Positions 30 through 26,998 of a stretch of 32,000 nt of DNA are shown here, piece by piece. The position numbers and the translations under genes were made by a program. Location of the stretch: the NCBI RefSeq assembly GCF_000011805.1, contig NC_006840.2, one strand, 5' to 3'. This stretch comes from Aliivibrio fischeri ES114. Its GTDB lineage: Bacteria; Pseudomonadota; Gammaproteobacteria; Enterobacterales; Vibrionaceae. A model generated the notes under the pieces. The model saw only the letters and a list, made by a program, of their open reading frames with translations. It was not told the origin of the DNA and searched no databases. Each line of letters opens with the position of its first letter. Positions within the stretch are counted from its first letter, which is position 1.

Positions 30-247
30 AAACTGCATCACTTACACCCCCTCCTAGCCTCCCCTTATATCGGCAGTTTCTACCAAGTTACATTGGTGAA
101 AAAGGGGAGGGACAGTATTGTGAGCGCTGCGGCTACCACGATCACTCCTGAACCCTGTAAGGGAGCTTGCGACCGATCTGAACCCTAAGCTCTTCCTCGA
201 GGACGAAGTCCGTACTCGTTTCTCGAAGCGTAGCGCACTCGTCCCTA
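30..247. repeat. Nested-palindrome intergenic repeat, copy A (right-hand part; may continue past the left window edge)
   Basis: Type-1 core hairpin in reverse orientation: CCTCCCCTT 58-66 pairs with AAGGGGAGG 102-110 across a 35-nt loop. Long-form arm CCTGAACCCTGTAAGGGAGCTTGCGACCGATCTGAACCC at 147-185. Outer module CTCTTCCTCGAGGACGAAGTCC...CACTCGTCCCTA ends at 247, 20 nt before the yiiD ATG. The same modules recur in copies B-L. Confidence 0.85.
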
Positions 248-267
248 ATCATAATAAAAGGATTTAT

Positions 268-1167
268 ATGTTTCGATTGATCACACCAACAACAGAAGCT
301 GAATTAAAAGCTTACTACCATTTTCGTTGGAAAATCTTACGTGAACCTTGGCGTCAGCCGGAAGGTTCTGAACGCGATGCGTATGATGATATGAGTCAGC
401 ATCGAATGATTTTAGATGGTCGTGATCAGCCTGTTGCCGTTGGGCGTTTATATTTAACTCCAGATAATGACGGTCAAATTCGCTATATGGCGGTTGCACC
501 ACATTGTCGAGGAAAAGGCATTGGTGCATTGATTATGGTTGCTCTGGAGTCTTATGCACGCCAAGAGAACGCTAAGCGCCTTGTATGTAATGCTCGTGAA
601 GATGCAATTCCATTCTATGTAGGAAATGGATTTACTAGCCAAGGTGAATTGAGTGATGAGAGAGGACCTGTCCGTCACCAACAAATGCTCAAACATTTAG
701 ATCCATTAGCTGATGTGCTGCGACGTCCTGACTGGTGCGCAGAGCTTCAAAAGCGTTGGGAAAATGAAATTCCAATCAGCGATAAAATGGGGATTAAAAT
801 TACCCAATACACAGGTTATCGTTTTGAAGTCAGTGCCATTTTAAATGCCAACCTTAATCCACATAATAGTATGTTCGCAGGCAGTATTTTCACCATGGGT
901 ACATTAACCGCTTGGGGAATTGTTTGGTTATTGCTAAAAGAACGAGGCTTGGATACCACCAGCATTATGTTGGTTGATAGTCATATTAGATATCGCCAAC
1001 CTATTGTTGATAATCCTAAAGGCATTACGTCGCTGAATTGTTTGGAAGGGGATTTTGATCGTCTACAATCAGGTAAGCGTGCGAGAGTGAAAGTAAAAGT
1101 CGATTTGTGTAATGGTGATAATCCTGCTGCGGAATTTACTGGAACGTTTATGTTGATGAGGGATTGA
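268..1167 (+). CDS. yiiD: GNAT N-acetyltransferase fused to a thioesterase-like (hot-dog) C-terminal domain, YiiD/FabY-type
   Basis: 299-aa ORF. The N-terminal half carries a GNAT acetyl-CoA motif (IRYMAVAPHCRGKGIGALIM). The C-terminal half (IKITQYTGYRFEVSA...HIRYRQPI) resembles the YiiD C-terminal thioesterase-like domain. AAGGA Shine-Dalgarno lies upstream of the ATG. Confidence 0.75.
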   Translation: MFRLITPTTEAELKAYYHFRWKILREPWRQPEGSERDAYDDMSQHRMILDGRDQPVAVGRLYLTPDNDGQIRYMAVAPHCRGKGIGALIMVALESYARQENAKRLVCNAREDAIPFYVGNGFTSQGELSDERGPVRHQQMLKHLDPLADVLRRPDWCAELQKRWENEIPISDKMGIKITQYTGYRFEVSAILNANLNPHNSMFAGSIFTMGTLTAWGIVWLLLKERGLDTTSIMLVDSHIRYRQPIVDNPKGITSLNCLEGDFDRLQSGKRARVKVKVDLCNGDNPAAEFTGTFMLMRD

Positions 1168-1170
1168 GAT

Positions 1171-1490
1171 TAGGGGCGAGGACGGACTTCGTCCTAAAGG
1201 TTTCAGGAAGAGCAAGAGCAGAGTTCAGATCGCTTCGCTTGCAGATTTCAGAGTTGCTCGCTGAAATTACAGTGACAAAGAATGGTTCTCCCCCTTTATC
1301 ACTATTGCTATGAGATCAATATAGTGAATACAAGGGGGAGTTAGAGGGGGTTGGTTGTGATTACTAGGTTTCAGGAAGAGCAAGACCTGAGTCCGGTTTG
1401 CTCTTCCTGAAACCTTAAGCCTGAAACCTCTTATAGTCTCTATTTTCAGATTTATACGCTGAAATCACAGCGATTACCTCTGAATCCTAA
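1171..1490. repeat. Nested-palindrome intergenic repeat, copy B
   Basis: Starts 3 nt after the yiiD stop with TAGGGGCGAGGACGGACTTCGTCC. Short-form arm GCAGAGTTCAGATCGCTTCGCTTGCAGATTTCAGAG at 1218-1252. Type-2 core hairpin: CTCCCCCTT 1288-1296 pairs with AAGGGGGAG 1332-1340. Perfect 18-bp hairpin AGGTTTCAGGAAGAGCAA 1366-1383 / TTGCTCTTCCTGAAACCT 1398-1415. Truncated right arm CCTCTGAATCC at 1477-1487. Confidence 0.9.
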
Positions 1491-1500
1491 GATCTCACTC

Positions 1501-2190
1501 CTAATCCGCCGCCTGCATTCTTGCCCACCACTCTTCATCAGCAACGATCTGCCCAGTTTCATCAAGCTGTGGTAATTCAAGACCTTTACGTTTGGCTACT
1601 TTCGCAAGAACAGGGTGGCCGCGTTCAAACAACACCTTATTGATGTATTCCTTTGGCAGCATACTCTCTTCACGATCATACATACCCGCTAAATCACGCT
1701 GACGCTGCGCTTCATATAAAATAAGCGCACTTGCAACCGATACATTTAGTGATTGCACCATACCTACCATAGGAATGATGATGTCTTGATCAGCCATTGC
1801 TAATGCTTTTTTGCTGATGCCTGTTTTTTCACTACCAAGAATGATGGCAGTTGGTTTGGTGTAATCAATTTCTCGAAAATCTACAGCTGTATCCGATAGA
1901 TTTGTCGCTAGAATCTGCATGCCTTGTTCTTTAAGCGTAGCAAAAGCATCTTCAATATTTTTATGTGTTTCCACATCAACCCAATTACGAGCACCAGCAG
2001 AAGTATGTCCTAGCATCTGCATCTGCTCTGTAGGCCAAACCGCATGAATTTTATGGATGCCTGTTGCATCAGCAGTACGAACAATCGCAGAAACGTTATT
2101 GGCTTTATGTACTTCTTCTAAACAAAGAGTGAGATCAGTTTGACGAGCTTTTAATACAGAAGTAATTCGTTGGTAGCGTTCTAAATTCAT
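1501..2190 (-). CDS. trmH: tRNA (guanosine-2'-O)-methyltransferase, SpoU/TrmH family
   Basis: 229 aa with SpoU-type motifs (NVSAIVRTADATG, IILGSEKTGIS, IPMVGMVQSLNVSVA). It lies downstream of spoT on the same strand, as in the E. coli gmk-rpoZ-spoT-trmH cluster. Confidence 0.9.
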   Translation of the reverse strand: MNLERYQRITSVLKARQTDLTLCLEEVHKANNVSAIVRTADATGIHKIHAVWPTEQMQMLGHTSAGARNWVDVETHKNIEDAFATLKEQGMQILATNLSDTAVDFREIDYTKPTAIILGSEKTGISKKALAMADQDIIIPMVGMVQSLNVSVASALILYEAQRQRDLAGMYDREESMLPKEYINKVLFERGHPVLAKVAKRKGLELPQLDETGQIVADEEWWARMQAAD

Positions 2191-2213
2191 AATTTTAATT
2201 CTTGAGATAGGTT

Positions 2214-2436
2214 GGAGGGACTAGGTTCTAGGGACGAGAAAGAGGTAGTCAAAATGGAACTAGAAACTATACGCTGCGCTAGCTAGAGACGATAAGAGCA
2301 TTATATGACTAAAGTTGAACGTCATTCTTAAATGGGTAATGCTTTTGATTTTATAGTTTCTAGAGCGAAGCGTTCTAGTTAGCGTAGTGTATAGATCTAA
2401 CTAAAAGGACGAGGTCCGTACTCGAACCTCGTCCCT
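2214..2436. repeat. Nested-palindrome intergenic repeat, copy C (between spoT stop and trmH start)
   Basis: Outer pair: TAGGGACGAG 2229-2238 with CCTCGTCCCT 2427-2436. Perfect 12-bp pair: CTAGAAACTATA 2260-2271 with TATAGTTTCTAG 2352-2363. Central hairpin: AAGAGCATTA 2294-2303 with TAATGCTTTT 2337-2346. Also contains the words AGAGCGAAGCG and TTAGCGTAG. Confidence 0.9.
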
Positions 2437-2441
2437 CGCAT

Positions 2442-4565
2442 CTAGTTCTTATGTCTACGTACTTTAAGTGCGTGTGGCATAACACGGATACGACGCATTA
2501 TTTCAGCTAAATGTTTACGATCTTTCACCGTAAGCTCGATGGTTACTGTATATAAGCGTCCATCTTTTTCTTCTGTTGAAATACCACGGATATTTGATCC
2601 TGTACCTGCAATCACATTCGCCAAATCAGCTAATGCACCTTGGTGGTTTTGGATATCAATATCTAATGCCGTATCAAATTCTTGATCGAATTCATCAGCC
2701 CATTCAACGCCCATGTACTTATCAAGTTCTTTTTGATAACCACGAACATTTGCACACTCTTCCATATGAACCACAAGGCCACGGCCAGGACTTACGTGAG
2801 CAATAATGTGATCACCCGGAATAGGGCGACAACAGTTTGCAAATGTCAGTAAGATGCCATCAGCACCACGGATTGGTAGTTTTTTACCAGTGGTGGTTTC
2901 AATGTTTGAGGTTTGTTCCGTTAATTCATCAGCAGAGCCTAATAGGCGACGAGCAATAACAATACTCATCAACTCACCTAAGCCGATAGCGGCCAGTAAG
3001 TCATCCAGTTCTGCTAATTTAAGATCAGATAAAACGTGATCAATATTCTCTTGAGATATATCGTCTAGTGATACGTTATGACCTAAAGCGTGATTCAATA
3101 GGCGACGACCTAATACTACAGAGTCTTCTCTGCGCATGGTTTTTAGCACTTGGCGGATCTTCGTACGTGCTTTTGATGTTACTACGTAGTTCAGCCATGC
3201 TGCATTTGGACGAGCACCAGGAGCACTGATGATTTCAACCGTCTGACCATTTTTAAGTGGTTTACTTAGTGGGTAAGGTTGACGGTTAACACGTGAACCA
3301 ACACAACTGTTACCAACATCAGAGTGAACGGCGTAAGCAAAATCTACAGCCGTTGCGCCAACAGGCAGTTCAAAAATACGGCCTTTTGGAGTGAAAACGT
3401 AAATTTCGTTCGGGAAGAGATCCGATTTTACGTTTTCAATAAATTCAAATGAGCTACCTGCACTTTGTTGAAGTTCAAGTAAGCTTTGCATCCAGCGTTG
3501 TGCTCGGATTTGAGCCGTTGTGCTAGAGTTATCGCCTTCTTTGTACGACCAATGTGCAGCAACACCTTTGTTCGCCATTTGCTCCATATCTTCAGTACGA
3601 ATTTGTACTTCAACAGGAACACCGTGAGGGCCAACCATAGAGGTATGAAGCGATTGGTAGCCATTGGCTTTTGGTACAGCAATATAGTCTTTAATACGAC
3701 CCGGACGAGGTTTGTAAATGCTGTGAACTTGGCCTAATGCTCGATAACAAGTATCGACATTATCGGTAATTACTCGGAACGCATAGATATCCATAATGGT
3801 ATGGAAACGCTGTTCTTTATTTTTCATTTTATTGTAAATAGCGAACAGGTTTTTCTCTCTACCAATCACTCGGCCAGTGATGCCAGCTTCAGCAATACGA
3901 CCTTCAATTTCAGAGTGAATTTTTTGGATCATCTCTTTACGGTTACCACGAGCTGACTTCACCACTTCTTTTAATACGCGATAGCGATTAGGGTAAAGGG
4001 CTTCAAAACCTAACTCTTCAAGTTCAGTTTTAATATTGTGGATACCAAGGCGATGCGCCAAAGGAGAGAAGATTTCTAAAGTTTCACGAGCAATGCGGCG
4101 ACGTTTATCAGGGCGTAAAGCACCCAACGTGCGCATGTTATGAGTTCGGTCAGCAAGTTTGATCAATATAACGCGGATGTCTTGCACCATCGCCATGACC
4201 ATTTTTCGGAAGTTTTCAGCCTGTGCTTCTTTTTTATCGCGGAACTTAAGTTTGTCCAGCTTAGAAACACCATCCACTAATTCGGCAACCGTATCACCAA
4301 ACTGCTCAGCGAGCTCTTCTTTGCTAACTGCAGTGTCTTCAATAACATCATGAAGCAGCGCAGCCATCAGCGTTTTGTGGTCGAGCTTCATTTCTGCAAG
4401 GATTCGAGCCACAGCTACTGGGTGGATGATATAAGGTTCGCCACTTGAGCGAGTTTGCCCTTCATGGGCTTCTTTTGCTACCAGATAAGATCGACGAAGA
4501 GCCTCAATGTGAGGCTCTGGCAGGTAATCTTTGGCAACATCTTTCAGGCTATCGAATAAATCCAA
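2442..4565 (-). CDS. spoT: Bifunctional (p)ppGpp synthetase/hydrolase SpoT
   Basis: 707 aa. The N-terminus aligns with E. coli SpoT as I recall it (LFxSL...YLVAxxAHEGQTRSSGEPYIxHP). HD hydrolase motif HDVIEDT is present, followed by RelA/SpoT synthetase, TGS and ACT-like C-terminal regions. The start codon is TTG at 4565. Confidence 0.95.
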   Translation of the reverse strand: MDLFDSLKDVAKDYLPEPHIEALRRSYLVAKEAHEGQTRSSGEPYIIHPVAVARILAEMKLDHKTLMAALLHDVIEDTAVSKEELAEQFGDTVAELVDGVSKLDKLKFRDKKEAQAENFRKMVMAMVQDIRVILIKLADRTHNMRTLGALRPDKRRRIARETLEIFSPLAHRLGIHNIKTELEELGFEALYPNRYRVLKEVVKSARGNRKEMIQKIHSEIEGRIAEAGITGRVIGREKNLFAIYNKMKNKEQRFHTIMDIYAFRVITDNVDTCYRALGQVHSIYKPRPGRIKDYIAVPKANGYQSLHTSMVGPHGVPVEVQIRTEDMEQMANKGVAAHWSYKEGDNSSTTAQIRAQRWMQSLLELQQSAGSSFEFIENVKSDLFPNEIYVFTPKGRIFELPVGATAVDFAYAVHSDVGNSCVGSRVNRQPYPLSKPLKNGQTVEIISAPGARPNAAWLNYVVTSKARTKIRQVLKTMRREDSVVLGRRLLNHALGHNVSLDDISQENIDHVLSDLKLAELDDLLAAIGLGELMSIVIARRLLGSADELTEQTSNIETTTGKKLPIRGADGILLTFANCCRPIPGDHIIAHVSPGRGLVVHMEECANVRGYQKELDKYMGVEWADEFDQEFDTALDIDIQNHQGALADLANVIAGTGSNIRGISTEEKDGRLYTVTIELTVKDRKHLAEIMRRIRVMPHALKVRRHKN

Positions 4566-4615
4566 ATTTCGCCCCGTCAGGTTTGCTGTTTACAATCTAC
4601 AAGAGATTATAAAGA

Positions 4616-4888
4616 TTAACGATTGTGTGTGATTGAGCTTACTGCTGCTAATTCAGCTGCGTCTTGCTCTTGTTGCTCTTGGCGCTCACGAGCATCTAGT
4701 AATTCTTTAGTGATCAGGCCTTCTTCAATTTCACGAAGAGCGATAACAGTTGTTTTATCGTTCTCTTCAGGCACTAGCGCATCTTTACCACCAGTTTGCA
4801 TTTGACGTGCGCGACGAGAAGAAATAAGTACTAGATCGAAACGGTTGCCGATTTTCTCAACTGCGTCTTGAACGGTTACACGTGCCAT
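4616..4888 (-). CDS. rpoZ: DNA-directed RNA polymerase subunit omega
   Basis: 90 aa. [21 protein letters not shown]...RRARQ is the canonical omega N-terminus. The gene lies between gmk and spoT. Confidence 0.95.
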
Positions 4889-4996
4889 GAGGACTCCAAT
4901 TTATTAACAAAAATAGTTATATGATGAGAAAGTATACAAGTAACCCGTATAAGTTTCTAGCTAGGGTTACAAGATACTCGTAGAAATATGAAGAAA

Positions 4997-5638
<642 letters not shown>

Positions 5639-6274: not shown

Positions 6275-6307
6275 CCTTAACGCTATTTTTTATTGGTAAT
6301 AATAAAG

Positions 6308-6467: not shown

Positions 6468-6851
6468 GTGATGCTAATTAGAAAGATAGCCACAATTTGT
6501 ATTTTAATGGCGACACTATTAGTTTTAACACTATATAGTGCGACATCTCGTGCAGAAAATTTACCAACTCAGTTCTCTGATAATCACGCTGTGGTTGAAA
6601 TTAGTCATGTTGATTTTTGTAATCTAGAACTTGGTGATATTCAATCATCAGCAGAGTCGGGGTGTTGTGATCCCGGAGGCTCTTGTTTTGAAAAGCAATG
6701 TTGTTCTCATGGGCATGCATCAAGCAGCAGTTTGGTGAGTAATTCACTGTTTGTTAATATAACGCCTTATCATTTTGTATCAGCTCCTATGGTATCTACT
6801 ACCTACTTAAGTGCTGATCTCGGTTATCTTTACCGACCTCCAATCAGTTAA
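6468..6851 (+). CDS. Hypothetical secreted Cys/His-rich small protein
   Basis: 127 aa. The N-terminal signal-like segment (ICILMATLLVLTLYSATSRA-EN) is followed by a Cys/His cluster, CCDPGGSCFEKQCCSHGH. I could not recognise a family with confidence. GTG 6468 and ATG 6471 are both possible starts. Confidence 0.55.
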   Translation: MMLIRKIATICILMATLLVLTLYSATSRAENLPTQFSDNHAVVEISHVDFCNLELGDIQSSAESGCCDPGGSCFEKQCCSHGHASSSSLVSNSLFVNITPYHFVSAPMVSTTYLSADLGYLYRPPIS

Positions 6852-9837: not shown

Positions 9838-9846
9838 TTGATTTTA

Positions 9847-9875
9847 ATAGCTCCTAATTTAGGGGCTATTTTTTT
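9847..9875 (+). promoter_or_regulatory. Hairpin plus T-run 10 nt after the rph stop; candidate pyrE attenuator/terminator
   Basis: Stem ATAGCTCCT 9847-9855 with AGGGGCTAT 9861-9869 (one G-T pair), followed by a T-run to 9875. The position matches the E. coli rph-pyrE intercistronic attenuator (established knowledge). Function here is inferred. Confidence 0.55.
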
Positions 9876-9888: not shown

Positions 9889-10045
9889 GCAAAGCAGACG
9901 GCTTTGCCTTGAGAGCGCTGCGCTTAAGACGCAGCAAGCTGCTAAAGAATGAAGAAGAGTAAGATTGAGTACAATTGTGTTCTTTTGATTTTCTTTAGCG
10001 AAGCGTCTCAAGGACGGAGTCCGTCTTAAGCGAAGCGCTCTTAAG
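9889..10045. repeat. Nested-palindrome intergenic repeat, copy D (between the rph attenuator and pyrE)
   Basis: 24-nt terminal inverted pair: CTTGAGAGCGCTGCGCTTAAGACG 9908-9931 with CGTCTTAAGCGAAGCGCTCTTAAG 10022-10045, 22 of 24 complementary. Small hairpin: GCAAAGC 9889-9895 with GCTTTGC 9901-9907. Inner words TTTAGCGAAGCGTC and GGACGGAGTCCGTC are shared with the other copies. Confidence 0.8.
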
Positions 10046-12422: not shown

Positions 12423-12425
12423 GAG

Positions 12426-12830
12426 TAGGGACGAGAATTGAGTACGTTTCGCTTAAGGGGCGAGGAAGAGCGTTAAAAGCAGAGTTCAGATCGGTCGCAG
12501 GCTCCCTTGCAGGATTCAGGGGAGATCGTTGTGATATCTACGATCACAGTACAGCTCCTCCCCTTGTTCATTAATGTTACTTGGTAGTAATTGTTGATAT
12601 AAGGGGAGGCTAGGAGGGGTTGTAAATGATGAAGTTCGGTTTAACCGAATAGCAAGAAACATTATAACCAACCCCCCCTCTAACTCCCCCTTGTATTAAC
12701 TATGTCGATCTCATGGCTATTGCGATAAAGGGGGAGAACCTTTCTTTGTCGCTGCTATAACAATATCCACCTCTGAATTCTGCTAGCGAAGCGATCTGAA
12801 CTCTGCTCTTTCAGAACCCTAGTCTTCAAA
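12426..12830. repeat. Nested-palindrome intergenic repeat, copy E (double-core form between ompR and envZ)
   Basis: Outer module TAGGGACGAG starts at 12426. Long-form arm 12479-12522. Linker hairpin: GATCGT 12524-12529 with ACGATC 12540-12545. Type-1 core: 12557-12565 with 12601-12609. Central palindrome TTCGGTTTAACCGAA at 12635-12649. Reverse type-2 core: 12684-12692 with 12728-12736. Short-form arm 12770-12806. The two arms are equidistant from about position 12642. Confidence 0.9.
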
Positions 12831-12854
12831 TTCATCACCAAACAGAGAACCTCT

Positions 12855-14159: not shown

Positions 14160-14405
14160 GAGTAAAAAGCTAGGATTCAGGTCTCAGGTTTCAGGAAGAG
14201 CAAAAGCGAGTACACCTGAAACCTGCAAGCGTAGCGCCCTGAAACCTAAAAACTCACCACATCAACCATGTCCGCTCTTATAGTTTCTAGTCAGCGCAGC
14301 GTATCGTTCCTAGTAAAAAATAAAAAAGACCGCAGATGATAATCACCTGCGGTCTTTTTCGTTTTTACTCGTCCTTAGAGCGAAGAGAACTTGTTTCTAG
14401 TCCCT
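14160..14405. repeat. Nested-palindrome intergenic repeat, copy F (convergent envZ/xanP gap)
   Basis: TTTCAGG module with an 11-bp stem, CAGGTTTCAGG 14185-14195 with CCTGAAACCTG 14215-14225, and a 19-nt loop. Also CAAGCGTAGCGCCCTGAAACC and a T-module, CTTATAGTTTCTAGTCAGCGCAGCGTATCG, at 14277-14306. The degenerate outer end ...CTAGTCCCT finishes at 14405, directly abutting the xanP stop codon. Confidence 0.85.
14322..14359. terminator. Bidirectional Rho-independent terminator embedded in copy F
   Basis: Stem GACCGCAG 14328-14335 with CTGCGGTC 14347-14354. An A-run lies upstream and TTTTT downstream. Confidence 0.8.
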
Positions 14406-15797
14406 TTAAGCAATCACATCTTGTTTTGCTTCTTCTTTCACTTCTGCATACGGCAATACGATATTTAAGATAATCGCAGTTACACCACCAGCAGTTACAC
14501 CTGATGAGAAAATGTTTTTAATCATCTCAGGCATGAACTGAAGAATTTCAGGTTTTTGAGCTAAACCAAGACCCATGGAGAAAGACATAGCCATGATTAG
14601 GATCGCGCGACGATCTAGTTCAACACGAGAGATAATACGCACACCAGCAGCCGCAATCGTACCGAACATCACAATAGTCGCACCACCAAGCACAGGCTCA
14701 GGAATGATCTGCACCATGCTTGCTACCCCTGGGAATAAACCAAGAAGAACTAGCATACCTGCGATGAAATAACCCACATAACGGCTTGCTACACCCGTTA
14801 ATAGAATTACGCCATTGTTTTGGCTAAACGTTGAGTTAGGGAAGCTGTTAAATGCTGCAGCGATTGCCGAGTTAATACCATCAGCTAATACACCGCCTTT
14901 AATGCGCTTCATATAAACCGGTCCTTTCACTGGTTGGCCTGATACTTCTGATGTCGCAGTAATATCACCAATGGCTTCTAGTGCCGTGATTAAGAAGATA
15001 AGCACCAAAGGAATAAACAGAGACCAGTCAAAACCTAAGCCATATTGCATAGGAATAGGTAGGGCAATGAGAGCTGCATCATGAGACATCTCTGTATTAA
15101 GCATTCCCATCGCCCACGCCACTAGCGTACCTACCGTCATTGCGATAACGATAGACGCCATACGTAGGTAAGGGTTAGTTGCTCGGTTTAATACCACAAT
15201 AATTAGTAATACCGTGCCAGCAAGAGCGAGTTTATCAAGGCTACCAAATGTGCCTTCGCCCATAGCTGAATACCCGCCCCCCATAGACACTAAACCGACT
15301 TGAATAAGAGTAAGGCCAATTAGGGTAACAACAATGCCAGAGACTAATGGAGTAATGATTTTTTGAGCGTATTCAAGAACACGAGACAGGAAAATTTCAG
15401 CGGTTGAAGCAACAAGAATGGTACCGAAAATGGCTGCCATCATTGTAGGAACATCAGCACCACCGGCTTTTAGTGCAAGGCCAGCACCAATGATTGGGCC
15501 TAAGAAATTAAAACTGGTGCCTTGAACTGAAAGTAAGCCAGAACCGATAGGGCCAAAGGTTTTAATTTGAATAAAAGAAGAAATGCCCGAAGCAAATAAA
15601 GACATGCTGATGATGGTATTGGTTTCAGCCGCTGGAACACCAAGTGTCTGACAGATGATCAGAGAAGGCGTAATAATAGCAACAAACATTGCCAGTAAGT
15701 GCTGAAAAGCAGCAAATAAAGTGTGCGGTAGCGGTGGACGATCATCTAATTGGTAGATCAATTCAGATGGTTTTGTGGTGCTGTTTTTAACGGTCAT
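14406..15797 (-). CDS. xanP: NCS2-family xanthine permease (XanP/YicE-like)
   Basis: 463 aa and colinear with E. coli XanP as I recall it ([34 protein letters not shown]...GDITATSxVSxQPVxGP...[16 protein letters not shown]). Confidence 0.85.
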
Positions 15798-15997
15798 GGC
15801 CGATATTCCTAGTTGTGTAACGTTGTCTTCAAATCTCGCTGAATGGGAGTTTGAAGTGAGAAGGCGTCAATCTGTGATTGCTGTTAATCAGAACCTTTCT
15901 CGATAGGGTTGCATTGTTAAGTTCAATACTTAATCAATTGGAGCGGTATTTTATAGATAATTTAATGAAAAGCAATCGTTTGCTTCGTTTTTTAAAT

Positions 15998-16177
15998 GAA
16001 GGGACGAGAGACGAGGACGCTTCGCTCGAGAGGGAGGCAGGGCAAAGTCGAAGAGCGAGGATTCAGGTCGCTTCGCTTGCAGGCTTCAGGTGTACTTGCT
16101 TTTGATTTTCCTGAAACCTGAAACCTGAAACCTGAAACCTCGCCTTTGCTCTTATAGCTTCTAACTCCGCCCCGTCC
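15998..16177. repeat. Nested-palindrome intergenic repeat, copy G (overlaps the comF 3' end)
   Basis: Outer module GGGACGAGAGACGAGGACGCTTCGCTCGAG starts at 16001. Arm AGGATTCAGGTCGCTTCGCTTGCAGGCTTCAGG at 16058-16090. A 19-nt loop follows, then CCTGAAA x4 at 16110-16140. The end CTTATAGCTTCTAACTCCGCCCCGTCC reaches 16177, inside comF. Confidence 0.85.
16110..16140. repeat. Tandem heptamer (CCTGAAA) x4.4
   Basis: Four perfect head-to-tail CCTGAAA units at 16110-16137 plus CCT. Other copies of the same module carry one or two units. Confidence 0.95.
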
Positions 16178-17708: not shown

Positions 17709-18188
17709 ATGATCTTTTCACCTAACAGTGTCAGTGTGCCGCTTATCGCACCTTCTGTTAATCTGCCAACAGAACAAGTAGCACGTGAAAATCGTGTTAA
17801 GAAGCCTGTTGCGCCGACGACAAAGATGAGCGAAACCACATCTGAAAAAGCAATCAAAGGTGATGATAAGCAACATAAGCGGGATGCTTGGGAGCCATCA
17901 GATCACCCTGGTTATGATGTGATGGAAGAGAAAGAGGAGCCTAAACCTCATTTCGCCACTCTGTATGATATCGATGACGATTTAGCTAAATTAGCTCGAT
18001 TGTTGTCGTTGGATACTTACGCTCAAGGTGAAGGAACGGGTTATACCATCCGTTTTAATTTGCCAAAGAATTTATTAGATAAACTTGAAGAGATGGGACG
18101 AATGGTTCGCCGTCGTAGTGTGATAAGTTTTCACTATGATAAGGCTGTGGTTCCGAATAATCCGTCGGATATATTGGCGGTGCTTTAA
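17709..18188 (+). CDS. Hypothetical protein, apparently co-transcribed with bioH
   Basis: 159 aa. AAGGA Shine-Dalgarno lies 8 nt upstream, and the gap after bioH is 26 nt. The N-terminal half is charged and low in complexity; the C-terminal third looks structured (YTIRFNLPKNLLDKLEEMGRMVRRRSVISFHY). I recognised no family. Confidence 0.6.
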   Translation: MIFSPNSVSVPLIAPSVNLPTEQVARENRVKKPVAPTTKMSETTSEKAIKGDDKQHKRDAWEPSDHPGYDVMEEKEEPKPHFATLYDIDDDLAKLARLLSLDTYAQGEGTGYTIRFNLPKNLLDKLEEMGRMVRRRSVISFHYDKAVVPNNPSDILAVL

Positions 18189-18194
18189 GGGGTT

Positions 18195-18383
18195 AAGAGC
18201 AGGGACGAGAGGTGAGTACGCTTCGCTCGAGGAGCGAGGGAGAGCGTAGGATTCAGGCCTCAGGTTTCAGGAAGATCAAAAGCGAGTACACCTGAAACCT
18301 GCAAGCATAGCGCCCTGAACCCTAAAACCTTTTTCTCTGCTCTTACTCGCCCCTAGAAGCGCAGCGTTCTCGTCACTCGAAAC
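18195..18383. repeat. Nested-palindrome intergenic repeat, copy H (complete outer-F-outer form; convergent gap)
   Basis: AAGAGCAGGGACGAGAGGTGAGTACGCTTCGCTCGAGGAGCGAG starts at 18195. Central 11-bp stem: CAGGTTTCAGG 18261-18271 with CCTGAAACCTG 18291-18301, 19-nt loop. The right outer module CTCTGCTCTTACTCGCCCCTAGAAGCGCAGCGTTCTCGTCAC runs up to the tex stop codon. Confidence 0.9.
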
Positions 18384-20752: not shown

Positions 20753-20929
20753 AGGTTTCAGGTTTCAAAAGAAGCAGAGTTCAGATCGCTTCGCTGGCAG
20801 AATTCAGAGGTGATCGCTTTAATTTCAACGATCACTTCTGAACTCTGCAAGGGAGCTTGCGACCGATCTGAGTTCTGCTCTCAGCTCTTCCTCGTCCCTC
20901 GAGCGAAGCGTCCTCGAATCTCGTCCCTA
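20753..20929. repeat. Nested-palindrome intergenic repeat, copy I (between greB stop and tex start)
   Basis: (GGTTTCA)x2 starts at 20754. Short-form arm 20774-20810. Linker hairpin: TGATCG 20811-20816 with CGATCA 20829-20834. Long-form arm 20835-20878. The outer module CTCTTCCTCGTCCCTCGAGCGAAGCGTCCTCGAATCTCGTCCCTA ends at 20929, and its last three bases are the greB stop codon. Confidence 0.9.
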
Positions 20930-21400
20930 CACCTGGTACCTAATCGAATTCACGAACCACTCTTTATCCCCATCAGGCGTTTTTACAATCACATCTTCAT
21001 CCACTTCTTTTTTGATCAGTGCACGAGCCATTGGGGAATCGATAGAGATATAGTCGTTGCGGCCAAATATTTCATCAGGACCAACGATGCGAAAAGAGAG
21101 GGTATCGCCTTGTTCGTTTTCAATTTCAACGAACGCACCGAAAAAGATTTTTCCGTCTTGCTGTGGGGAATAGTCGACCACTTTTACTTGGTCTAAACGT
21201 TTACGAAGGTAGCGAACACGGCGGTCTATTTCACGAAGGCGTTTTTTGTTGTATTGATAATCAGCGTTTTCACTGCGATCACCAAGGCTAGCCGCCCAAG
21301 TCACTTTTTTTGTGACTTCTGGGCGTTCTTCTTTCCATAGAAACGTGAGTTCATCTTGTAGCTTATTAAAGCCTTCACGTGTGATTAAATTGGTTTTCAT
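20927..21400 (-). CDS. greB: Transcription elongation factor GreB
   Basis: 157 aa. MKTNLITREGFNKLQDEL...GDRSENADYQYNKKRLREIDRR is the Gre coiled-coil signature, and the C-terminal globular domain is present. Confidence 0.9.
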   Translation of the reverse strand: MKTNLITREGFNKLQDELTFLWKEERPEVTKKVTWAASLGDRSENADYQYNKKRLREIDRRVRYLRKRLDQVKVVDYSPQQDGKIFFGAFVEIENEQGDTLSFRIVGPDEIFGRNDYISIDSPMARALIKKEVDEDVIVKTPDGDKEWFVNSIRYQV

Positions 21401-21418
21401 TATTTATCCTGACACGCC

Positions 21419-22357
21419 CTAATCGTAGCGGATGCCTTTTTTAACGTTTGGATCTTCCATTGTTTTAAAACGTTTATGTAGCCACATCCATTGAGGAATA
21501 CAGCGTAAAATGACACGTTCTACCGCTTTATTCATTACCGTAGCAACACCAACGGGATCTTTCTTCGGAAATTGGTCACTGATGTCATTATCAATTTGTA
21601 AGTGGTAATTATTGTAAGTTCTAAAGCCCGATGCAGTAACAACGGCACATTTACTTGCACTGATTAATATATCCGAGCCTACGGTAGTACAAGCATCTGG
21701 AACCGCAAAGAAAGGAACAAAGACCGATTTATTGCGGTTGTAATCGTGGTCAGGCATATACCAAAGACGCTCACCTTTACGTAATACACGCAGCATGCCT
21801 TTGACGTCTTTTCTATCAATCATTTGGTTGCCATTATTGGTTCGGCCCCAATGTTGAATGAAATCGTAAGCTGGGTTGTTATGTGGGCGGTAAACACCAT
21901 AACCTGGAGCAAAAGAAGTGAATGCACGAGCGGTAAGTTCAAGGTTTAATGCGTGAACACAAACAACTAATACGCCACGACCTTCTTCTGCAAGATCAAG
22001 AATGTGCTGCTTGTTTTCATAACTAAAATGTTTTTCGACACGCCAATCTGGCCATACCCAAGCCATTGCGGTTTCAAAAATCGCAAGACCTGAATTTTTG
22101 AAATTCTCAACAATAATGGCTTCACGCTCAGACGATTCCATTTCTGGAAAAGCGAGTTCTAAATTACGGCGAGCAACATGGGCTCTTGATTTTCCGAGTT
22201 TTAATCCAAGTAAACCAAGAGAGCGACCAAGTTTGTAAGTTACTTTATAAGGTAATAGGGTGACGATGGCAAAAAGGAATCCGAATCCAAACCATACCCC
22301 CCAATATTTAGGGTGTAGAAGAGCGCTAGAGAATTTAGGTGCTGGATACTTTGACAT
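21419..22357 (-). CDS. Lipid A secondary (Kdo2-lipid IVA) acyltransferase, LpxL/LpxM/LpxN family
   Basis: 312 aa. An N-terminal membrane anchor is followed by the HX4D-type acyltransferase region (VCVHALNLEL), with overall similarity to HtrB/MsbB-type enzymes. The donor acyl specificity cannot be called from sequence. Confidence 0.85.
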   Translation of the reverse strand: MSKYPAPKFSSALLHPKYWGVWFGFGFLFAIVTLLPYKVTYKLGRSLGLLGLKLGKSRAHVARRNLELAFPEMESSEREAIIVENFKNSGLAIFETAMAWVWPDWRVEKHFSYENKQHILDLAEEGRGVLVVCVHALNLELTARAFTSFAPGYGVYRPHNNPAYDFIQHWGRTNNGNQMIDRKDVKGMLRVLRKGERLWYMPDHDYNRNKSVFVPFFAVPDACTTVGSDILISASKCAVVTASGFRTYNNYHLQIDNDISDQFPKKDPVGVATVMNKAVERVILRCIPQWMWLHKRFKTMEDPNVKKGIRYD

Positions 22358-22381
22358 CGTGAGCCTATTTTATCTAATTAA

Positions 22382-22972
22382 TTATTGGATCTGAGCACTG
22401 AGTAGCGCCCAATACTCGTTAAAGTTTTCAGTCGGTTGATATTTAAAATCAGAACGAACAAAACGACAGAAACTCCCCTCGACTTGACCCACAAGCTGAG
22501 CGGCTAAAATACTTTCATCAATTGGGAATGCTTTCCCTTCACGTAATTTACGTTCACGTAAGATTTGTTTGAATTGAAGTTCAATACGCTCAAATATTTG
22601 ATTGATGCGGCTTCTTAAGCGCTCATTTTCAAACATCAGCGCATGGCCTGTCATAATTCGAGTTAATCCCGGGTTACGTTCAGCAAAGGCGAGCAGAAGT
22701 TTTAATAATAGCTCAATACGTTTTAAAGTATCTTTTTCATCTTCAAGAATGCGGTTAACACGCGAAAAAATAGATTCTTCAATAAATTCAATTAAGCCTT
22801 CAAACATTTTGGCTTTGCTTGGGAAATGGCGATATAACGCAGCTTCTGATACACCAACCTGTTTTGCTAATTTGGCTGTGGTAATGCGAGCAGCACCTTC
22901 ATTGGACTCTAGCATTTCAGCTAAAGCTTGTAGTATTTCATCACGACGATTTGGTTTTCTTGGGGTCGCCAT
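22382..22972 (-). CDS. slmA: Nucleoid occlusion factor SlmA (TetR family)
   Basis: 196 aa. [15 protein letters not shown]...[36 protein letters not shown] matches SlmA. It lies next to coaBC, as in enterobacteria. Confidence 0.9.
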
Positions 22973-23020
22973 TACGGTTCCTTTGTCATTTTTTATTATT
23001 TTTTGTGGAGCTGTTTTTAT

Positions 23021-23124
23021 AAGAGTTCAGATCGCTTCGCTTGCAGAATTCAGAGGGGAGCGTTGAAATATCAGCGAGCACCTCTGAACCCTGTAAGGGA
23101 GCTTGCGACCGATCTGAATCCTGC
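23021..23124. repeat. Nested-palindrome intergenic repeat, copy J (minimal arm-linker-arm form)
   Basis: Short-form arm AAGAGTTCAGATCGCTTCGCTTGCAGAATTCAGAGG at 23021-23056. Linker 23057-23080. Long-form arm CCTCTGAACCCTGTAAGGGAGCTTGCGACCGATCTGAATCCTGC at 23081-23124, ending 2 nt before the coaBC stop codon. Confidence 0.9.
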
Positions 23125-23126
23125 TT

Positions 23127-24356
23127 CTACAGTTTCTCAACGATCTCAAGCATAATCGCTTTACCCAACTCCGACTTCGTCGTTAACGGTAGCGCTTTAT
23201 CACCTTCTTTCCAATATAGGTGAAGCGCATTGTTATCACTATTAAAGCCTTGTCCCTGAACTGATACATCGTTTGCACAGATCATATCTAAATTTTTGCG
23301 TTCTAATTTACCGCGAGCGTATTTTTCCACATCTTGAGTTTCAGCTGCAAAACCAACAGTAAATGGACGCTGATTCGTTAATGCTGCAACTGAAGCGACA
23401 ATATCTGGGTTCTTAACCATATGAAGCGTCATGCCATCTTCATCGGCGGTTTTCTTTAATTTTTGAGTCGCCACTTGGCTTAGTTTGAAATCAGCAACGG
23501 CAGCACATGCGATAAAGATAGAATGAGATTGTGCATTTTTCATTACCGCTCCGTGCATTTGTTCTGCGCTTTCAATATCAATGCGTTTCACGTTCTCTGG
23601 TGTTGCAAGGTTAACAGGACCACTGACTAAAGTGACGTTAGCACCTAATTGAGCTGCGGCTTCTGCAATAGCAAATCCCATTTTCCCTGAGCTATGGTTA
23701 GAGATATAACGAACAGGATCGATGGCTTCACGAGTTGGGCCCGCAGTAATAAGTAGAGATTGACCTTTAAGTGGTTTTTCATCAGCTTCTGCTTGTTCAC
23801 AAGAATTCGCTTGGAAAAAGTCTTCACATAAATGAACCAGCTCCATTGGCTCAAGCATTCTTCCCATGCCCACATCACCACAAGCTTGTTGGCCCGCTGC
23901 TGGGCCCCAAATGTGCATGCCACGACGAGCTAGTGTTGCTATGTTTTCTTGCGTCGCGATATTGCTATACATTTGCTGATTCATAGCAGGAGAGACCGCG
24001 ACAGGAGAATCTGTAGCAAGAACTAAAGTAGATAATAAATCGTTACCCATGCCAGCAGCCATTCGAGCAATCAGATCAGCCGTAGCAGGAGCAAGTAAAA
24101 CAATGTCAGCCCACTTTGCTAACTCAATGTGTCCCATTGATGCTTCAGCAGCAGGATCAAGTAAACTATCAGCAACAGGGTGGCCAGAAACCGCCTGCAT
24201 TGTTAATGGGGTAATGAACTCTTTTGCTGCTTTTGTCATTACTACACGAACTTCAGCGCCGCGTTCAATCAATCGACGAGTCAGTTCTGCACATTTATAA
24301 GCTGCAATGCCGCCGCTAATACCAAGAAGAATTCGTTTCCCTGCAAGAGATGCCAT
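23127..24356 (-). CDS. coaBC: Bifunctional phosphopantothenoylcysteine decarboxylase / phosphopantothenate-cysteine ligase
   Basis: 409 aa. The N-terminal flavoprotein motif ([13 protein letters not shown]) is followed by the C-terminal CoaB domain ([25 protein letters not shown]). Confidence 0.95.
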
Positions 24357-24576
24357 GACACTAATTACCCTGTTAGTGGTTCACCATAAAGTAGCGCTAA
24401 CCATATCATAATTTTTTTTCAGAGTGATGCACTTCCAATCTCTTCCATCAAGTAAATGACCAAAAACATAATTGCAATCAAGGTTTGAAGCTTGCCGAAG
24501 GCTAAGTAATCGAGAAAGCGCATAAGATTTAGACATCGTAGGCTGTGTAGATAGCAAGCTATTAATTGAGAAAACT

Positions 24577-25251
24577 ATGTCATTAATGAACCTACCAGAA
24601 GAATCTAGACCAAGAGAGAAGTTACTCGCACTTGGGCCAAAGTCATTAACGGATGCTGAATTACTCGCGATCTTTTTAAGAACTGGGACCCAAGGAATGA
24701 ATGCCATTGAACTGGCAGACAAACTATTAAAGGAGTTCGGCTCATTAAGGAAGTTACTCAGTTCTGATGAAAATGAATTCTGCAGTCATAAAGGGTTGGG
24801 AACCGCAAAGTTTGCACAGCTGCAAGCCGTTGTTGAAATGACAGAACGGTATTTATTTGAAAAGATTGAAAAAGAGGATGCGTTAACCAGTCCCGAGCAT
24901 ACAAAGCGTTATTTAACCCGAATGTTAAGAGATAGACATAGGGAAGCGTTTTATGTTTTGTTCCTTGATAATCAGCATCGAGTACTAAAAGGGGAGATAT
25001 TATTTGAAGGAACAATCGATGTTGCTGCCGTTTATCCGAGAGAAGTTGTAAAAAGATCGATAGATTATAATGCAGCCGCCATCATTTTAGCGCATAATCA
25101 CCCCTCCGGTGTAGCCGAACCAAGTCAAGCCGACAGAAGAATTACAAAACGTATTTCTGATGCCGTAGAATTGGTGGATATCCGAGTCCTTGATCATTTT
25201 GTGATCGGTGATGGAGAAATAGTCTCTTTTGCCGAAAGAGGATGGATTTGA
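24577..25251 (+). CDS. radC: RadC/YicR-family JAB-domain protein
   Basis: 224 aa. The N-terminal [26 protein letters not shown] motif is followed by the C-terminal JAMM motif ILAHNHPSG. The gene is divergent from coaBC, as in E. coli. Confidence 0.9.
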
Positions 25252-25313
25252 GTGTTTTTTTTACCGATTGAATAAAAAAAATACAAAAAACCGTAAAAAG
25301 ATCCCTTAGGGTC

Positions 25314-25343
25314 TTGAGCAATGCGCAATCACATTAGTATAAT
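25314..25343 (+). promoter_or_regulatory. Candidate sigma-70 promoter for rpmB-rpmG
   Basis: TTGAGC at 25314-25319, an 18-nt spacer, then a perfect TATAAT at 25338-25343, about 100 nt upstream of rpmB. Confidence 0.45.
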
Positions 25344-25446
25344 GCGCGACCTTTGATAGCCTTGAATTAGAAATTTCCTATGGAATTTCTAGTGGTTTTT
25401 CGCCACCAAGGTGATATCGAGCTGAAACGATTTGGAGAAGACAGCA

Positions 25447-25683
25447 ATGTCCCGAGTATGCCAAGTAACTGGTAAGCGTCCTGCAGTTGGTAACAACCGC
25501 TCACACGCAAAAAATGCCACCAAGCGTCGTTTTCTGCCGAACCTACAAACTCATCGTTTCTGGGTAGAAAGCGAAAAACGCTTCGTTAAACTTCGTCTTA
25601 CCGCTAAAGGTATGCGTATCATTGATAAGAAAGGTATCGAAACCGTTCTTGCAGATATGCGTGCTCGTGGCGAGAACGTTTAA
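25447..25683 (+). CDS. rpmB: 50S ribosomal protein L28
   Basis: 78 aa from ATG 25447 ([32 protein letters not shown]). The ORF-track start at 25432 adds 5 non-conserved residues. Confidence 0.95.
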
Positions 25684-25697
25684 GAGGAATCTGAACA

Positions 25698-25865
25698 ATG
25701 GCTAAAGGCGCACGTGAGAAAATCAAGTTAGTATCAACTGCTAACACTGGTCACTTCTACACAACTGACAAAAACAAACGTAACATGCCAGGCAAAATGG
25801 AGATCAAAAAATACGATCCTGTTGTACGCCAGCACGTTCTTTACAAAGAAGCAAAAATCAAGTAA
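25698..25865 (+). CDS. rpmG: 50S ribosomal protein L33
   Basis: Not in the ORF track because it is too short. My manual translation gives 55 aa: [61 protein letters not shown] Shine-Dalgarno lies upstream, 14 nt after the rpmB stop. Confidence 0.95.
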
Positions 25866-25900
25866 TTCGATTACTGATTGCAACTTTGATAAAATTGAAA

Positions 25901-25928
25901 ACCCAGCCTTGTTGCTGGGTTTTTTTTT
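25901..25928 (+). terminator. Rho-independent terminator of rpmB-rpmG
   Basis: Stem ACCCAGC 25901-25907 with GCTGGGT 25914-25920, followed by eight T at 25921-25928. Confidence 0.85.
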
Positions 25929-25932
25929 GCGT

Positions 25933-26306
25933 GAAGAGCAGGGACGAGAGGTGAGGACGCTTCGCTCAAGGAGCGAGTAAGGTCAAAAACGGAAGAGCTA
26001 GAGTTCAGATCGCTACGCTTGCAGAGTTCAGAGGCACTTGCTTCTAGCTCCTCCCCTTTATCGACATAGCCACTTGGTTGATAAAGTAAATATAAGGGGA
26101 GGCTGGGAGGGGTTGTTAGTAAATGACTAGGAACTATACGCTGTGCTAACTAAATACTATAAAATCGAGTATGGTAGGTGTTTTGAGTTATCATGAAACA
26201 TGAAACCTCGATCTTGCTCTTATCGTTTCTAGTTAGCGAAGCGTATAGTCTCTAAAACTCGCCGCTTCTTGAACCTCGAACGAAGCGTCCTCGCTTCTAG
26301 TCCCTG
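25933..26306. repeat. Nested-palindrome intergenic repeat, copy K
   Basis: GAAGAGCAGGGACGAGAGGTGAGGACGCTTCGCTC starts at 25933. Arm TAGAGTTCAGATCGCTACGCTTGCAGAGTTCAGAGG at 25999-26034. Type-1 core: CCTCCCCTT 26050-26058 with AAGGGGAGG 26094-26102. T-module halves at 26116-26157 and 26218-26258. Right outer module ...CGAACGAAGCGTCCTCGCTTCTAGTCCCTG ends at 26306. Confidence 0.9.
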
Positions 26307-26325
26307 TTCTTAAAAAGGATTTAAA

Positions 26326-26781
26326 ATGAAAAAACCATCACGTCGCAAATACAACAACATGCTGATCATCTTCGTGTTGCTTTTCATTGCAGTACTTCAA
26401 GCTCCTCAGCTAATAAAAACATATTTAATAGAACCAAAAGAAAATATTGAAGTAGTTGAAGGTATTAAGCCGTTATTCGAAGGGGAAAATGCGATCCAAA
26501 AAATGCATTTTTCAGAATACGATCTAAGTGCTAATACTTCAGAGCAAGAGAGCCAACTCATTGAACGTTGGTTTACGCTAGAAGGAACCCTTCTTAATGA
26601 TGATTCAGTAAAAGCATTGAAAGAAAAGTTACCCGCTCCAAGCTCTGTTGAAGTCTGGCTTGAAGACCAGGAAGAGCCGCAACGAATTACTATTTACCAA
26701 GCACCAAGTTTTTGGATGATGCAAAACTGGCAAGGTGAGTGGATCGCAGTAAGTGCGGAAGAAGGGTATTTGTTTAGGTAA
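26326..26781 (+). CDS. Hypothetical membrane-anchored protein
   Basis: 151 aa. A basic N-terminus is followed by one hydrophobic helix (MLIIFVLLFIAVL) and an acidic soluble domain. AAAGGA Shine-Dalgarno is present. I recognised no family. The ORF is bracketed by repeat copies K and L. Confidence 0.6.
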   Translation: MKKPSRRKYNNMLIIFVLLFIAVLQAPQLIKTYLIEPKENIEVVEGIKPLFEGENAIQKMHFSEYDLSANTSEQESQLIERWFTLEGTLLNDDSVKALKEKLPAPSSVEVWLEDQEEPQRITIYQAPSFWMMQNWQGEWIAVSAEEGYLFR

Positions 26782-26998
26782 GAGCAGGGACGAGAGGCGA
26801 GGACGCTTCGCTCGTAGAGTTCAGAGGCAGTTGCTTCTAGCTCCTCCCCTTTATCGACATAGCCACTTGGTTGATAAAGTAAATATAAGGGGAGGTTGGG
26901 AGGGTTTGTTAGTAAATAGCTAGAAATTATACGCAGCGTTAACTTGAGCGCTTTACTTGCAGAGTTTAAAGGAACTTGCTTTTGATTTTCCTGAAACC
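26780..26998. repeat. Nested-palindrome intergenic repeat, copy L (deletion derivative of the K form)
   Basis: AAGAGCAGGGACGAGAGGCGAGGACGCTTCGCTCG starts inside the stop codon of the 151-aa ORF. Type-1 core: 26843-26851 with 26887-26895. Positions 26831-26895 are identical at 65 of 65 bases to 26038-26102 of copy K. It ends with ...CTTGCTTTTGATTTTCCTGAAACC at 26998. Confidence 0.9.

Follow-up and report, generated by a model that had tools for sequence, protein, structure and literature searches.

The window analysed here is a stretch of 32,000 nucleotides (nt) from chromosome I of Aliivibrio fischeri ES114 (contig NC_006840.2), a housekeeping region whose intergenic gaps carry a family of modular, nested inverted repeats. 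Its 30 open reading frames (ORFs), annotated with NCBIfam, run in the order yiiD / trmH spoT rpoZ gmk / psiE-like, orf127, eamA / yicC / rph pyrE / parA-like / ompR envZ in the first part, and xanthine permease / comF / bioH orf159 / tex / greB lpxL slmA coaBC / radC rpmB rpmG / orf151 mutM sulfatase / coaD in the second. No transposase is among them, as a preliminary description of the window had stated, and a scan of the window for tRNA and tmRNA genes found none. Twelve intervals hold the repeats, termed copies A to L (Table 1), which sum to 2,812 nt or 8.8% of the window; the repeat share in 16 loci from other Aliivibrio genomes is 7.1%. The mosaic family is found so far only in Aliivibrio and occupies the same niche as the REP (repetitive extragenic palindromic) sequences and bacterial interspersed mosaic elements (BIMEs) of E. 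coli. On balance we lean towards a lineage-restricted family of non-coding BIME-like mosaic repeats that is reshaped by slippage and recombination, rather than a cut-and-paste MITE (miniature inverted-repeat transposable element).

Repeat clusters in a housekeeping region

All large direct and inverted repeat families of the window map to the twelve intervals that the preliminary description had singled out by words recurring in both orientations, and its five modules (O, A, F, T and core) all read as described there. Against expectations from 100 dinucleotide-preserving shuffles of the window, GCAGAGTTCAGATCG with up to 3 mismatches has 12 matches (0.72 expected), AGGGACGAG with up to 1 mismatch has 21 (2.97 expected) and CGCTNCGCT has 22 (0.80 expected), 20 of the latter within the twelve intervals. 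Such diagnostic words are 7- to 27-fold over expectation, and none of the 100 shuffles reaches the observed counts. The enrichment that had earned the copies the name of GC-rich islands is modest (42-54% GC against 41.6% overall). Paralogous copies in the window are 80-94% identical and thus give no sign of a recent burst.

The census of gaps also stands. The ORF map and annotation yield 20 gaps longer than 100 nt, 12 of them with a copy, while none of the four divergent gaps is occupied. Three of the six convergent gaps are, and these are the sole convergent gaps above 100 nt. All 12 copies lie in co-directional or convergent gaps. The intervals themselves hold with two corrections. Copy A is the cut half of a palindrome of about 460 nt, so it starts at base 1 and is not a short form; the full double-core form of the dtd-yiiD gap is seen in strains L021, L023, L024 and L025. 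Copy G ends at 16160 rather than 16177, as 16161-16177 are the last comF codons.

Table 1. Repeat copies of the window and their junctions with stop codons; junction rows give either the stop codon with the sequence that follows it or the distance between stop codon and element, and z is that of the predicted hairpin.
Feature	Position	Location	Composition or junction	z
Copy A	1-247	dtd-yiiD gap	right half of double-core palindrome, cut by the window edge	
Copy B	1171-1490	convergent yiiD/trmH gap		-6.4
Copy C	2214-2436	spoT-trmH gap	O/O' frame around T...T' palindrome	-7.2
Copy D	9889-10045	rph-pyrE gap, just past rph terminator (9846-9870)	P-type	-8.0
Copy E	12426-12830	within ompR-envZ operon	double-core palindrome	-7.5
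Copy F, left part	14160-14319	downstream of envZ	F hairpin, duplicated CCTGAAACC around spacer, then T' module	
Copy F, right part	14361-14405	0 nt from xanthine permease stop codon	degenerate O' module	
Copy G	15998-16160	downstream of comF	O module, F unit, microsatellite (CCTGAAA)4.4 at 16110-16140	
Copy H	18195-18383	convergent orf159/tex gap	O...O' frame around F hairpin	-5.9
Copy I	20753-20929	greB-tex gap	(AGGTTTC)2, arm-linker-arm element, O' module	-6.6
Copy J	23021-23124	coaBC-slmA gap, ends 2 nt from coaBC stop	minimal 104-nt arm-linker-arm form	
Copy K	25933-26306	past rpmG terminator (25897-25924)	concentric O, A, core, T ... T', O'	-9.0
Copy L	26780-26998	orf151-mutM gap	non-palindromic half-element	-2
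ompR junction			TAA GAG TAGGGACGAG	
orf151 junction			TAA GAG CAGGGACGAG; stop TAA is the TAA of TAAGAGCAGGGACGAG	
yiiD junction			TGA GAT TAGGGGCGAG	
greB junction			stop TAG is the TAG within GTAGGGACGAG	
Xanthine permease junction			+0 nt	
comF junction			+0 nt	
coaBC junction			+2 nt	
spoT junction			+5 nt	
tex junction			+5 nt	
trmH junction			+10 nt	
orf159 junction			+11 nt	

At 12 stop codons an element end is found 0-11 nt away, and the outermost unit is always directed away from the upstream gene, starting 0-11 nt past its stop codon. The same rule is obeyed by dtd (TAA GGG CAGGGGCGAG) and, in strains with an O unit there, by envZ. After rph and rpmG the element begins just past a strong intrinsic terminator. 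Where downstream genes have their own upstream region, at copies G, I and J, that region is free of repeats, as in the permease upstream region beside copy G (15798-15990). As the clusters lie between a stop codon or terminator and the 5' region of the next gene, they are expected to be transcribed as 3' untranslated region (3'UTR) or intercistronic RNA. OmpR ends in ...YVFVPDGAEA here and in ...YVFVPDGSKA in E. coli, which indicates that the native stop codon has been kept despite the adjoining repeat. The two genes of the ompR-envZ operon overlap in E. coli and are held apart here by 432 nt of repeat (12423-12854).

Intrinsic (Rho-independent) terminators were considered as an identity for the modules and rejected, the modules giving only weak, chance-level matches. 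The strong terminator-like sites at 9846-9870, 14322-14360 and 25897-25924 adjoin repeats and do not lie inside modules. The second of these, a conserved bidirectional terminator, separates the two parts of copy F and is not a member of the family, and the gap of copy H contains no intrinsic terminator.

Unit grammar and hairpins

The basic unit of the family is a word X of 6-10 nt, a generic spacer and X again, with a period of 23 nt. The spacer is either S1 (CGCTNCGCT) or S2 (CGGTCGCAAGCTCCC). The word CGCTNCGC, which extends to the 9-mer S1, has 145 occurrences in 156.6 kb, where about 7 would be expected; its central N is T at 69 sites, G at 55, A at 20 and C at 1, with a T following it in 96% of sites. 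The 10-mer preceding S1 is repeated 23 nt downstream (at least 8 of 10 identities) at 37% of 136 sites, compared with 9% in cross-site controls, and no other offset stands out. X differs by module, being TTCAGA in A, TTTCAGG in F, GACGAG in O, CTAGAAAC/ACTATA in T and CTTAAGA in the P type of copy D. S2 faces S1 in the arm-linker-arm form and is also found with CTTAAGA words in another strain. Units are linked by the junction words AAGAGC(A)/GCTCTT (210 observed, 70 expected). Within the window 12 spacers are on the plus strand and 11 on the minus strand, as inverted pairs.

Higher-order structure is built by nesting these pairs. Cores come in two types, CCTCCCCTT-N35-AAGGGGAGG and, with a short loop, CCTCCCCTT-AGT-AAGGGGGAGG. 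In strain L017 an F stem, GGATTCAGGAAGAGC...GCTCTTCCTGAAACC, surrounds an A-type double-core palindrome, and in the dtd-yiiD gap an O/O' pair surrounds everything. Copy A accordingly reads core', linker', long-spacer arm, GGACGAAGTCC mini-hairpin and outer O' module, ending 20 nt before the yiiD start codon, and is 80% complementary over 171 nt to 12481-12651 in copy E. The latter runs from an O module 3 nt past the ompR stop through long-spacer arm, linker, core, centre, core' and linker' to a short-spacer arm. Copy B begins with an O-like head 3 nt past the yiiD stop, followed by F stem, A arm, linker, a single core, a complete F hairpin and a degenerate A' arm. Copy D combines the X words CTTAAGA/CTTGAGA with three CGCTNCGCT spacers and a GGACGGAGTCC mini-hairpin, while the left part of copy F is 94% identical to copy H. 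In copy J a short-spacer arm (CGCTTCGCT) faces a long-spacer arm (GGTCGCAAGCTCC), with a predicted single-stranded DNA fold of -26.4 kcal/mol (z = -5.0). Copy L is 88% identical to the left half of copy K, with O and A units fused at CGCTNCGCT spacers.

Shine-Dalgarno and anti-Shine-Dalgarno look-alikes occur at 20810-20835, 12525-12550, 12557-12623 and 26050-26116. Linkers carry GATCACCTC/GAGGTGATC, strings that equal the 3' end of 16S rRNA or its complement, and in cores CCTCCCCTT pairs with AAGGGGAGG, after which comes a second AGGAGGGG. These resemblances may be coincidence.

The X-spacer-X arrangement could be read as the footprint of insertion. S1 and S2, at 13-20 nt, would then be the primary inserted units, each duplicating a landing word of 8-10 nt to give X-S-X with its 23-nt period, and AAGAGCA words would flank whole O units one level up, as expected of a hierarchical micro-insertion or templated insertion into hairpin arms and stop-proximal TAAGAG. 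We consider this highly improbable, and know of no described bacterial transposition system that operates at the scale of a 13-20 nt spacer.

Since units are arranged in nested inverted pairs, a whole gap folds as one long imperfect hairpin. Ten copies (B-K) are predicted to do so, with z between -4.3 and -9 relative to mononucleotide shuffles. A covariance model of the arm-linker-arm form finds 44 matches in 400 kb, of which 35 distinct rows were used. Its scores of 148 bits for one strand against 70 for the other show that the element is polar. Among these rows 88.4% of cells pair across the arms, and both sides have changed in 15 of 36 pairs. The covariation score is 0.152 against 0.096 when shuffled, a value reached by none of 500 shuffles, and sliding the partner by 1-3 columns lowers pairing to 28-49%. 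Since the rows were aligned by fitting to the model and include some orthologues, we treat this covariation as supportive rather than decisive. Folding energies of sense and antisense strands and G-U counts, which bear on an RNA or a DNA role, show no consistent bias.

Polar, paired arms invite comparison with REP doublets forming hairpins (REPINs) and the REP-associated tyrosine transposases (RAYTs) that mobilise them. Inverted doublets such as copy J would be copied via single-stranded hairpins by an HUH tyrosine transposase that has one gene copy at another place in the genome, and the mosaics would consist of accumulated and decayed doublets. The long hairpins with compensatory changes that the inverted arms form around a short linker agree with this, as do the polarity of the doublet and the location of the repeats at gene 3' ends in a lineage-restricted, vertically persistent family. 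d(GCGNAGC) is a known mini-hairpin with a GNA triloop, and the variable base of AGCGNAGCG would match the free base of that loop. The units, however, are not palindromes of 20-40 nt. With nearest-neighbour parameters that lack a GNA-triloop bonus, no single-stranded DNA fold is predicted for S1 and its flanks, and S2 has a weak 5-bp stem (-4.6 kcal/mol, z = -1.7). Of about 12 outer modules, only 2 carry a GTAG head. A phmmer search with E. coli TnpA-REP (verified against 4ER8) found no relative among 1,559 ORFs of 454 kb, a highly redundant set that covers less than 10% of a genome and is too small to decide. An insertion or deletion (indel) of a whole doublet was never seen. Given this balance, a REPIN/RAYT-type origin is unlikely.

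Turnover at persistently occupied gaps

Five repeat gaps (B-F) were compared with those of ten other A. fischeri strains. Ten A. fischeri assemblies, MJ11 (CP001139) among them, encode an RpoZ identical to that of the window. In the ten strains, gaps free of repeats keep their length to within 1 nt (about 108, 213, 193, 230, 160 and 178 nt). Repeat gaps vary two- to three-fold in length between strains, from 192 to 450 nt in B, 177-254 nt in C, 128-257 nt in D, 220-476 nt in E and 246-553 nt in F. None of these five gaps is empty in any of the ten strains, nor are six gaps in one to three other Aliivibrio species. In A. sp. 1S175, A. sifiae and A. logei, gaps D, E, F, G, H and I are occupied with different module sets, and the adjoining terminators and the 28-nt comF-bioH gap are conserved.

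What changes is the content. In the dtd-yiiD gap a constant outer O/O' pair encloses an interior that ranges from 171 to 536 nt across strains. The frame of gap C has two alleles, with either an F unit or a T palindrome inside; three allele classes are seen in gap E; and in gap D all ten other strains have O/F modules in place of the P-type copy. Gap J holds an A-type element or, in L027 and L030, a P-type element unrelated to it. The pairwise indel listing is noisy where unrelated modules are force-aligned, and only events with clean flanks were used. The clean indels are units or half-elements with direct repeats of 5-12 nt at their boundaries, and none corresponds to a whole element with terminal inverted repeats or to a whole doublet. 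Indels of 23 and 30 nt consist of one spacer and one X, with X words at the boundaries, and half-element indels of 157 and 167 nt are bounded by direct repeats of 10-12 nt. Units are fused spacer to spacer at S1 when L017 is compared with L023 in gap D, as in copies L and K of the window. The (CCTGAAA) microsatellite has 1-6 units among strains. Local gene conversion is suggested by the E-gap copy of L023, whose loop is the variant otherwise carried by the F-gap copies at a distance of 1.7 kb.

These observations bear on the two origins that the preliminary description had offered, a MITE- or REPIN-like mobile family or a BIME-like mosaic. The BIME-like part is supported, as all compared orthologous gaps are occupied with reshuffled contents. 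Against the simple mobile-element part, no consistent pair of terminal inverted repeats accompanied by a target-site duplication is seen. Such universal occupancy, which the preliminary description had itself named as telling against mobility, undermines the simple mobile-element reading.

The concentric structure might nevertheless be explained by MITEs nested in one another, with every palindromic layer (O, F, A, T) mobilised in trans by a DDE transposase and inserted preferentially into the loop of an earlier element. None of the 11 compared gaps shows the empty site that such insertion predicts, the inserted segments are half-elements without terminal inverted repeats, and target-site duplications flanking elements were not found, direct repeats bounding internal units and not whole elements. 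Outer inverted pairs ending AAGAGCAGGGACGAG do bracket whole gaps. O/O' pairs form the frame of copies C, H and K and of that in the dtd-yiiD gap, and copies F, G, I, J and L end in non-matching or different sequences, and G, I, J and L have no matching outer ends. AGAGCAG is enriched (57 observed, 14 expected) and TA precedes it in 17 of the 57, which is 30% only, while the flanking AAGAG/CTCTT words are inverted and part of the repeat rather than direct duplications. Also in favour of insertion are the F-hairpin loop of gap F, which by strain is empty or contains 87 nt or 250 nt, and a 52-nt O unit that is present or absent between flanks of TAAGAGCA. No related insertion sequence was seen, the sole one, of the IS4 family in A. 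logei (L007), having unrelated ends, and the divergence among copies is also at odds with this scheme. We therefore judge nested MITEs distinctly unlikely.

Persistent occupancy of the same gaps across species could alternatively reflect selection on cis-acting sites, with phased X words (23 nt being about two helical turns) or spacers forming arrays for the binding of a host protein, or structured regulatory RNAs. Regular phasing of the direct repeats, co-variation of the arms and the fixed orientation of the outer module relative to the stop codon would fit. This is quite improbable given that module type, number and order at one gene change freely between strains and species, that at least five different X words occur on the same spacers, that no Rfam family matches and that there is no strand preference relative to transcription.

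In the BIME-like mosaic that we favour, clusters would persist at permissive gaps and turn over by local DNA processes rather than transposition; the events are observed, and the processes behind them are inferred. Deletion and duplication would occur between short direct repeats, units would fuse at spacers and the 7-nt microsatellite would slip. Palindrome interiors may be replaced through recombination or gene conversion with other copies, the shared arms serving as homology, and the constant outer frame with its variable interior may reflect breakage at hairpin tips followed by ectopic repair from other copies. By analogy with REPs, the hairpins could tune the stability of mRNA 3' ends, read-through and possibly translation termination.

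Several points weigh against this interpretation. Its RNA-level role is borrowed from REPs by analogy; orthologous gaps do not share their module content, so that no particular sequence seems to be required; and the transcribed strand folds better in only 6 of 9 copies, with mixed magnitudes. Recombination and slippage account for turnover, not for the colonisation of many gaps. They also leave unexplained the fixed 3-nt offset of the outer module after several stops (TAA GAG YAGGGACGAG), which hints at a sequence-directed insertion step. Representative genomes have only 1-3 exact matches each to the arm-module 22-mer GCAGAGTTCAGATCGCTTCGCT. Some allele differences go together with divergence of the flanking genes: between the window and L008 yiiD-trmH is 87% identical and spoT 97.7%. 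Part of the variation between strains may thus be old alleles that moved with flanking genes by homologous recombination.

Two insertions unrelated to the family were encountered in the comparison. In the orf159-tex gap of A. logei (L007:3690-5100, equivalent to 18189-18383 of the window) an IS4-family insertion sequence lies within a short-loop core module. It encodes a transposase of 419 amino acids (aa) with Pfam domains Nterm_IS4 and DDE_Tnp_1, has GGGTTAGGG on both sides, and its ends are unrelated to the repeat family. The brkB-bipA gap (L019:16413-16708), about 4 kb to the left of the window start, contains an AT-rich insertion of about 165-180 nt with inverted ends of about 17 nt (ACCAATCCAAATAAGTA / TACTTATTTGGGTTGGT), present in four of ten A. 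fischeri strains (L019, L021, L025 and L026) and not in the other six. Presence and absence of this kind is classically MITE-like, unlike the pattern of the mosaic family.

Distribution and relation to known repeats

In collections with one genome per species the exact 22-mer GCAGAGTTCAGATCGCTTCGCT occurs at 16 loci, confined to Aliivibrio species (fischeri, logei, sifiae, finisterrensis, kagoshimensis and several further species) and one Vibrionaceae metagenome-assembled genome. Four of the 16 loci (L004, L007, L008 and L016) lie in different gaps of the region orthologous to the window (189-21136), which is less than 1% of a genome. The region may therefore be a hot spot of the repeat or a site of local copy exchange, and its local density is no guide to genome-wide copy number.

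The suggestion that the family may be undescribed is upheld for Rfam, for phage and plasmid records and for searchable papers. Rfam gave no match at gathering scores and, at E <1, only terminator look-alikes at 14259-14473 and unrelated weak matches. Phage and plasmid records gave no blastn match, and an exact scan of viral contigs with two arm words found none. Matches to module words in the searchable literature are at chance level, and no Aliivibrio or V. fischeri repeat found there corresponds to the family. The REP surveys (PMC3733652, PMC12306157 and PMC2817692) make no mention of Vibrionaceae. Inverted repeats of the ain locus (PMC5601948) are unrelated.

VfRep may be the same repeat. 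The searchable literature confirms only the existence of VfRep genotyping, and the two share the species and strain-level polymorphism. Wollenberg and Ruby are said to have typed strains in 2009 by VfRep-PCR on a V. fischeri-specific repetitive element. If VfRep and the mosaic family are the same, its existence is already known; to our knowledge no anatomy, dynamics or mechanism has been described for VfRep.

REP/BIME clusters of E. coli and Salmonella provide the closest parallel. They too are extragenic, lie at gene 3' ends and inside operons and leave divergent promoter gaps free, and they consist of units in alternating orientation with a few linker motifs that fold into long hairpins and vary in content between strains at a persistently occupied site. 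For many E. coli REP copies the distance to a stop codon is reportedly no more than about 15 nt (Liang, Rudd and Deutscher are said to have described this in 2015). As terminators and stabilisers in the 3'UTR, REPs act in a context-dependent way, and their locations differ from strain to strain (bioRxiv 10.64898/2026.03.23.713779). The mosaic family differs in having no sequence similarity to them and no Rfam match, in a unit that is a direct-repeat pair around a conserved spacer rather than a GC-rich imperfect palindrome of 20-40 nt, and in a concentric arrangement rather than linear alternation. Nor is the GTAG (or CGTC) head conserved, heads reading [T/C]AGGGACGAG with GTAG only after ompR and greB. 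Given REP/BIME-like behaviour without palindromic units or a conserved head, we describe the family as a BIME-like mosaic of new build.

Other systems share fewer traits. REPIN/RAYT elements of Pseudomonas fluorescens (Bertels & Rainey, PMC3116915) resemble the family in their inverted doublet hairpin of about 100 nt, lineage specificity and long vertical persistence. Unlike them, the family has arms that are not palindromic REPs, more diverged copies and frequent half-elements, and a RAYT did not turn up in the 454 kb searched (less than 10% of a genome). BOX of S. pneumoniae, RIME of Rhizobium and the Sm repeats of Sinorhizobium consist of a few short modules in variable number, and are intergenic, structured and without their own transposase. 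The modular build and the intergenic, structured character are common to both, whereas sequences are unrelated and the nested inverted order contrasts with the fixed linear boxA-(boxB)n-boxC order of BOX. Neisseria Correia elements and the enterobacterial repetitive intergenic consensus (ERIC/IRU) are, similarly, imperfect palindromes co-transcribed with their neighbours, ERIC having size variants through internal insertion. They have defined lengths and ends and, for Correia, a TA target duplication, whereas in the mosaic family neither constant ends nor length classes nor target duplications were found.

A. fischeri serves as a genetically tractable model of symbiosis. As the repeats fill about 9% of a housekeeping region and form strain-variable gaps, including 220-476 nt in ompR-envZ, they are a plausible hidden source of regulatory variation; the ompR-envZ spacer allele series could shift the EnvZ:OmpR ratio. 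Natural alleles of the repeat gaps are suited to swap experiments, and the family is a practical target for strain typing. It also provides a second, unrelated system, with an unusually legible grammar, for the origin and persistence of REP/BIME-like mosaics.

The repeats may, in addition, explain fragmented short-read assemblies. Logan short-read contigs (L032-L036, 2.1-2.3 kb) come from independent assemblies that break on either side of slmA-lpxL-greB, at copies J and I, and repeats or palindromes could be the cause. Three conserved ORFs, at 6468-6851 (127 aa), 17709-18188 (159 aa) and 26326-26781 (151 aa), are without a match in NCBIfam or Pfam. Strains differ in the content and order of genes around clusters K and L (25866-29886 of the window compared with L027-L030). 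L027 and L030 have an additional sulfatase gene of 513 aa in gap K, and in L027-L029 a sulfatase gene of 659-660 aa lies on the opposite strand between orf151 and mutM, the sulfatase gene of the window following mutM.

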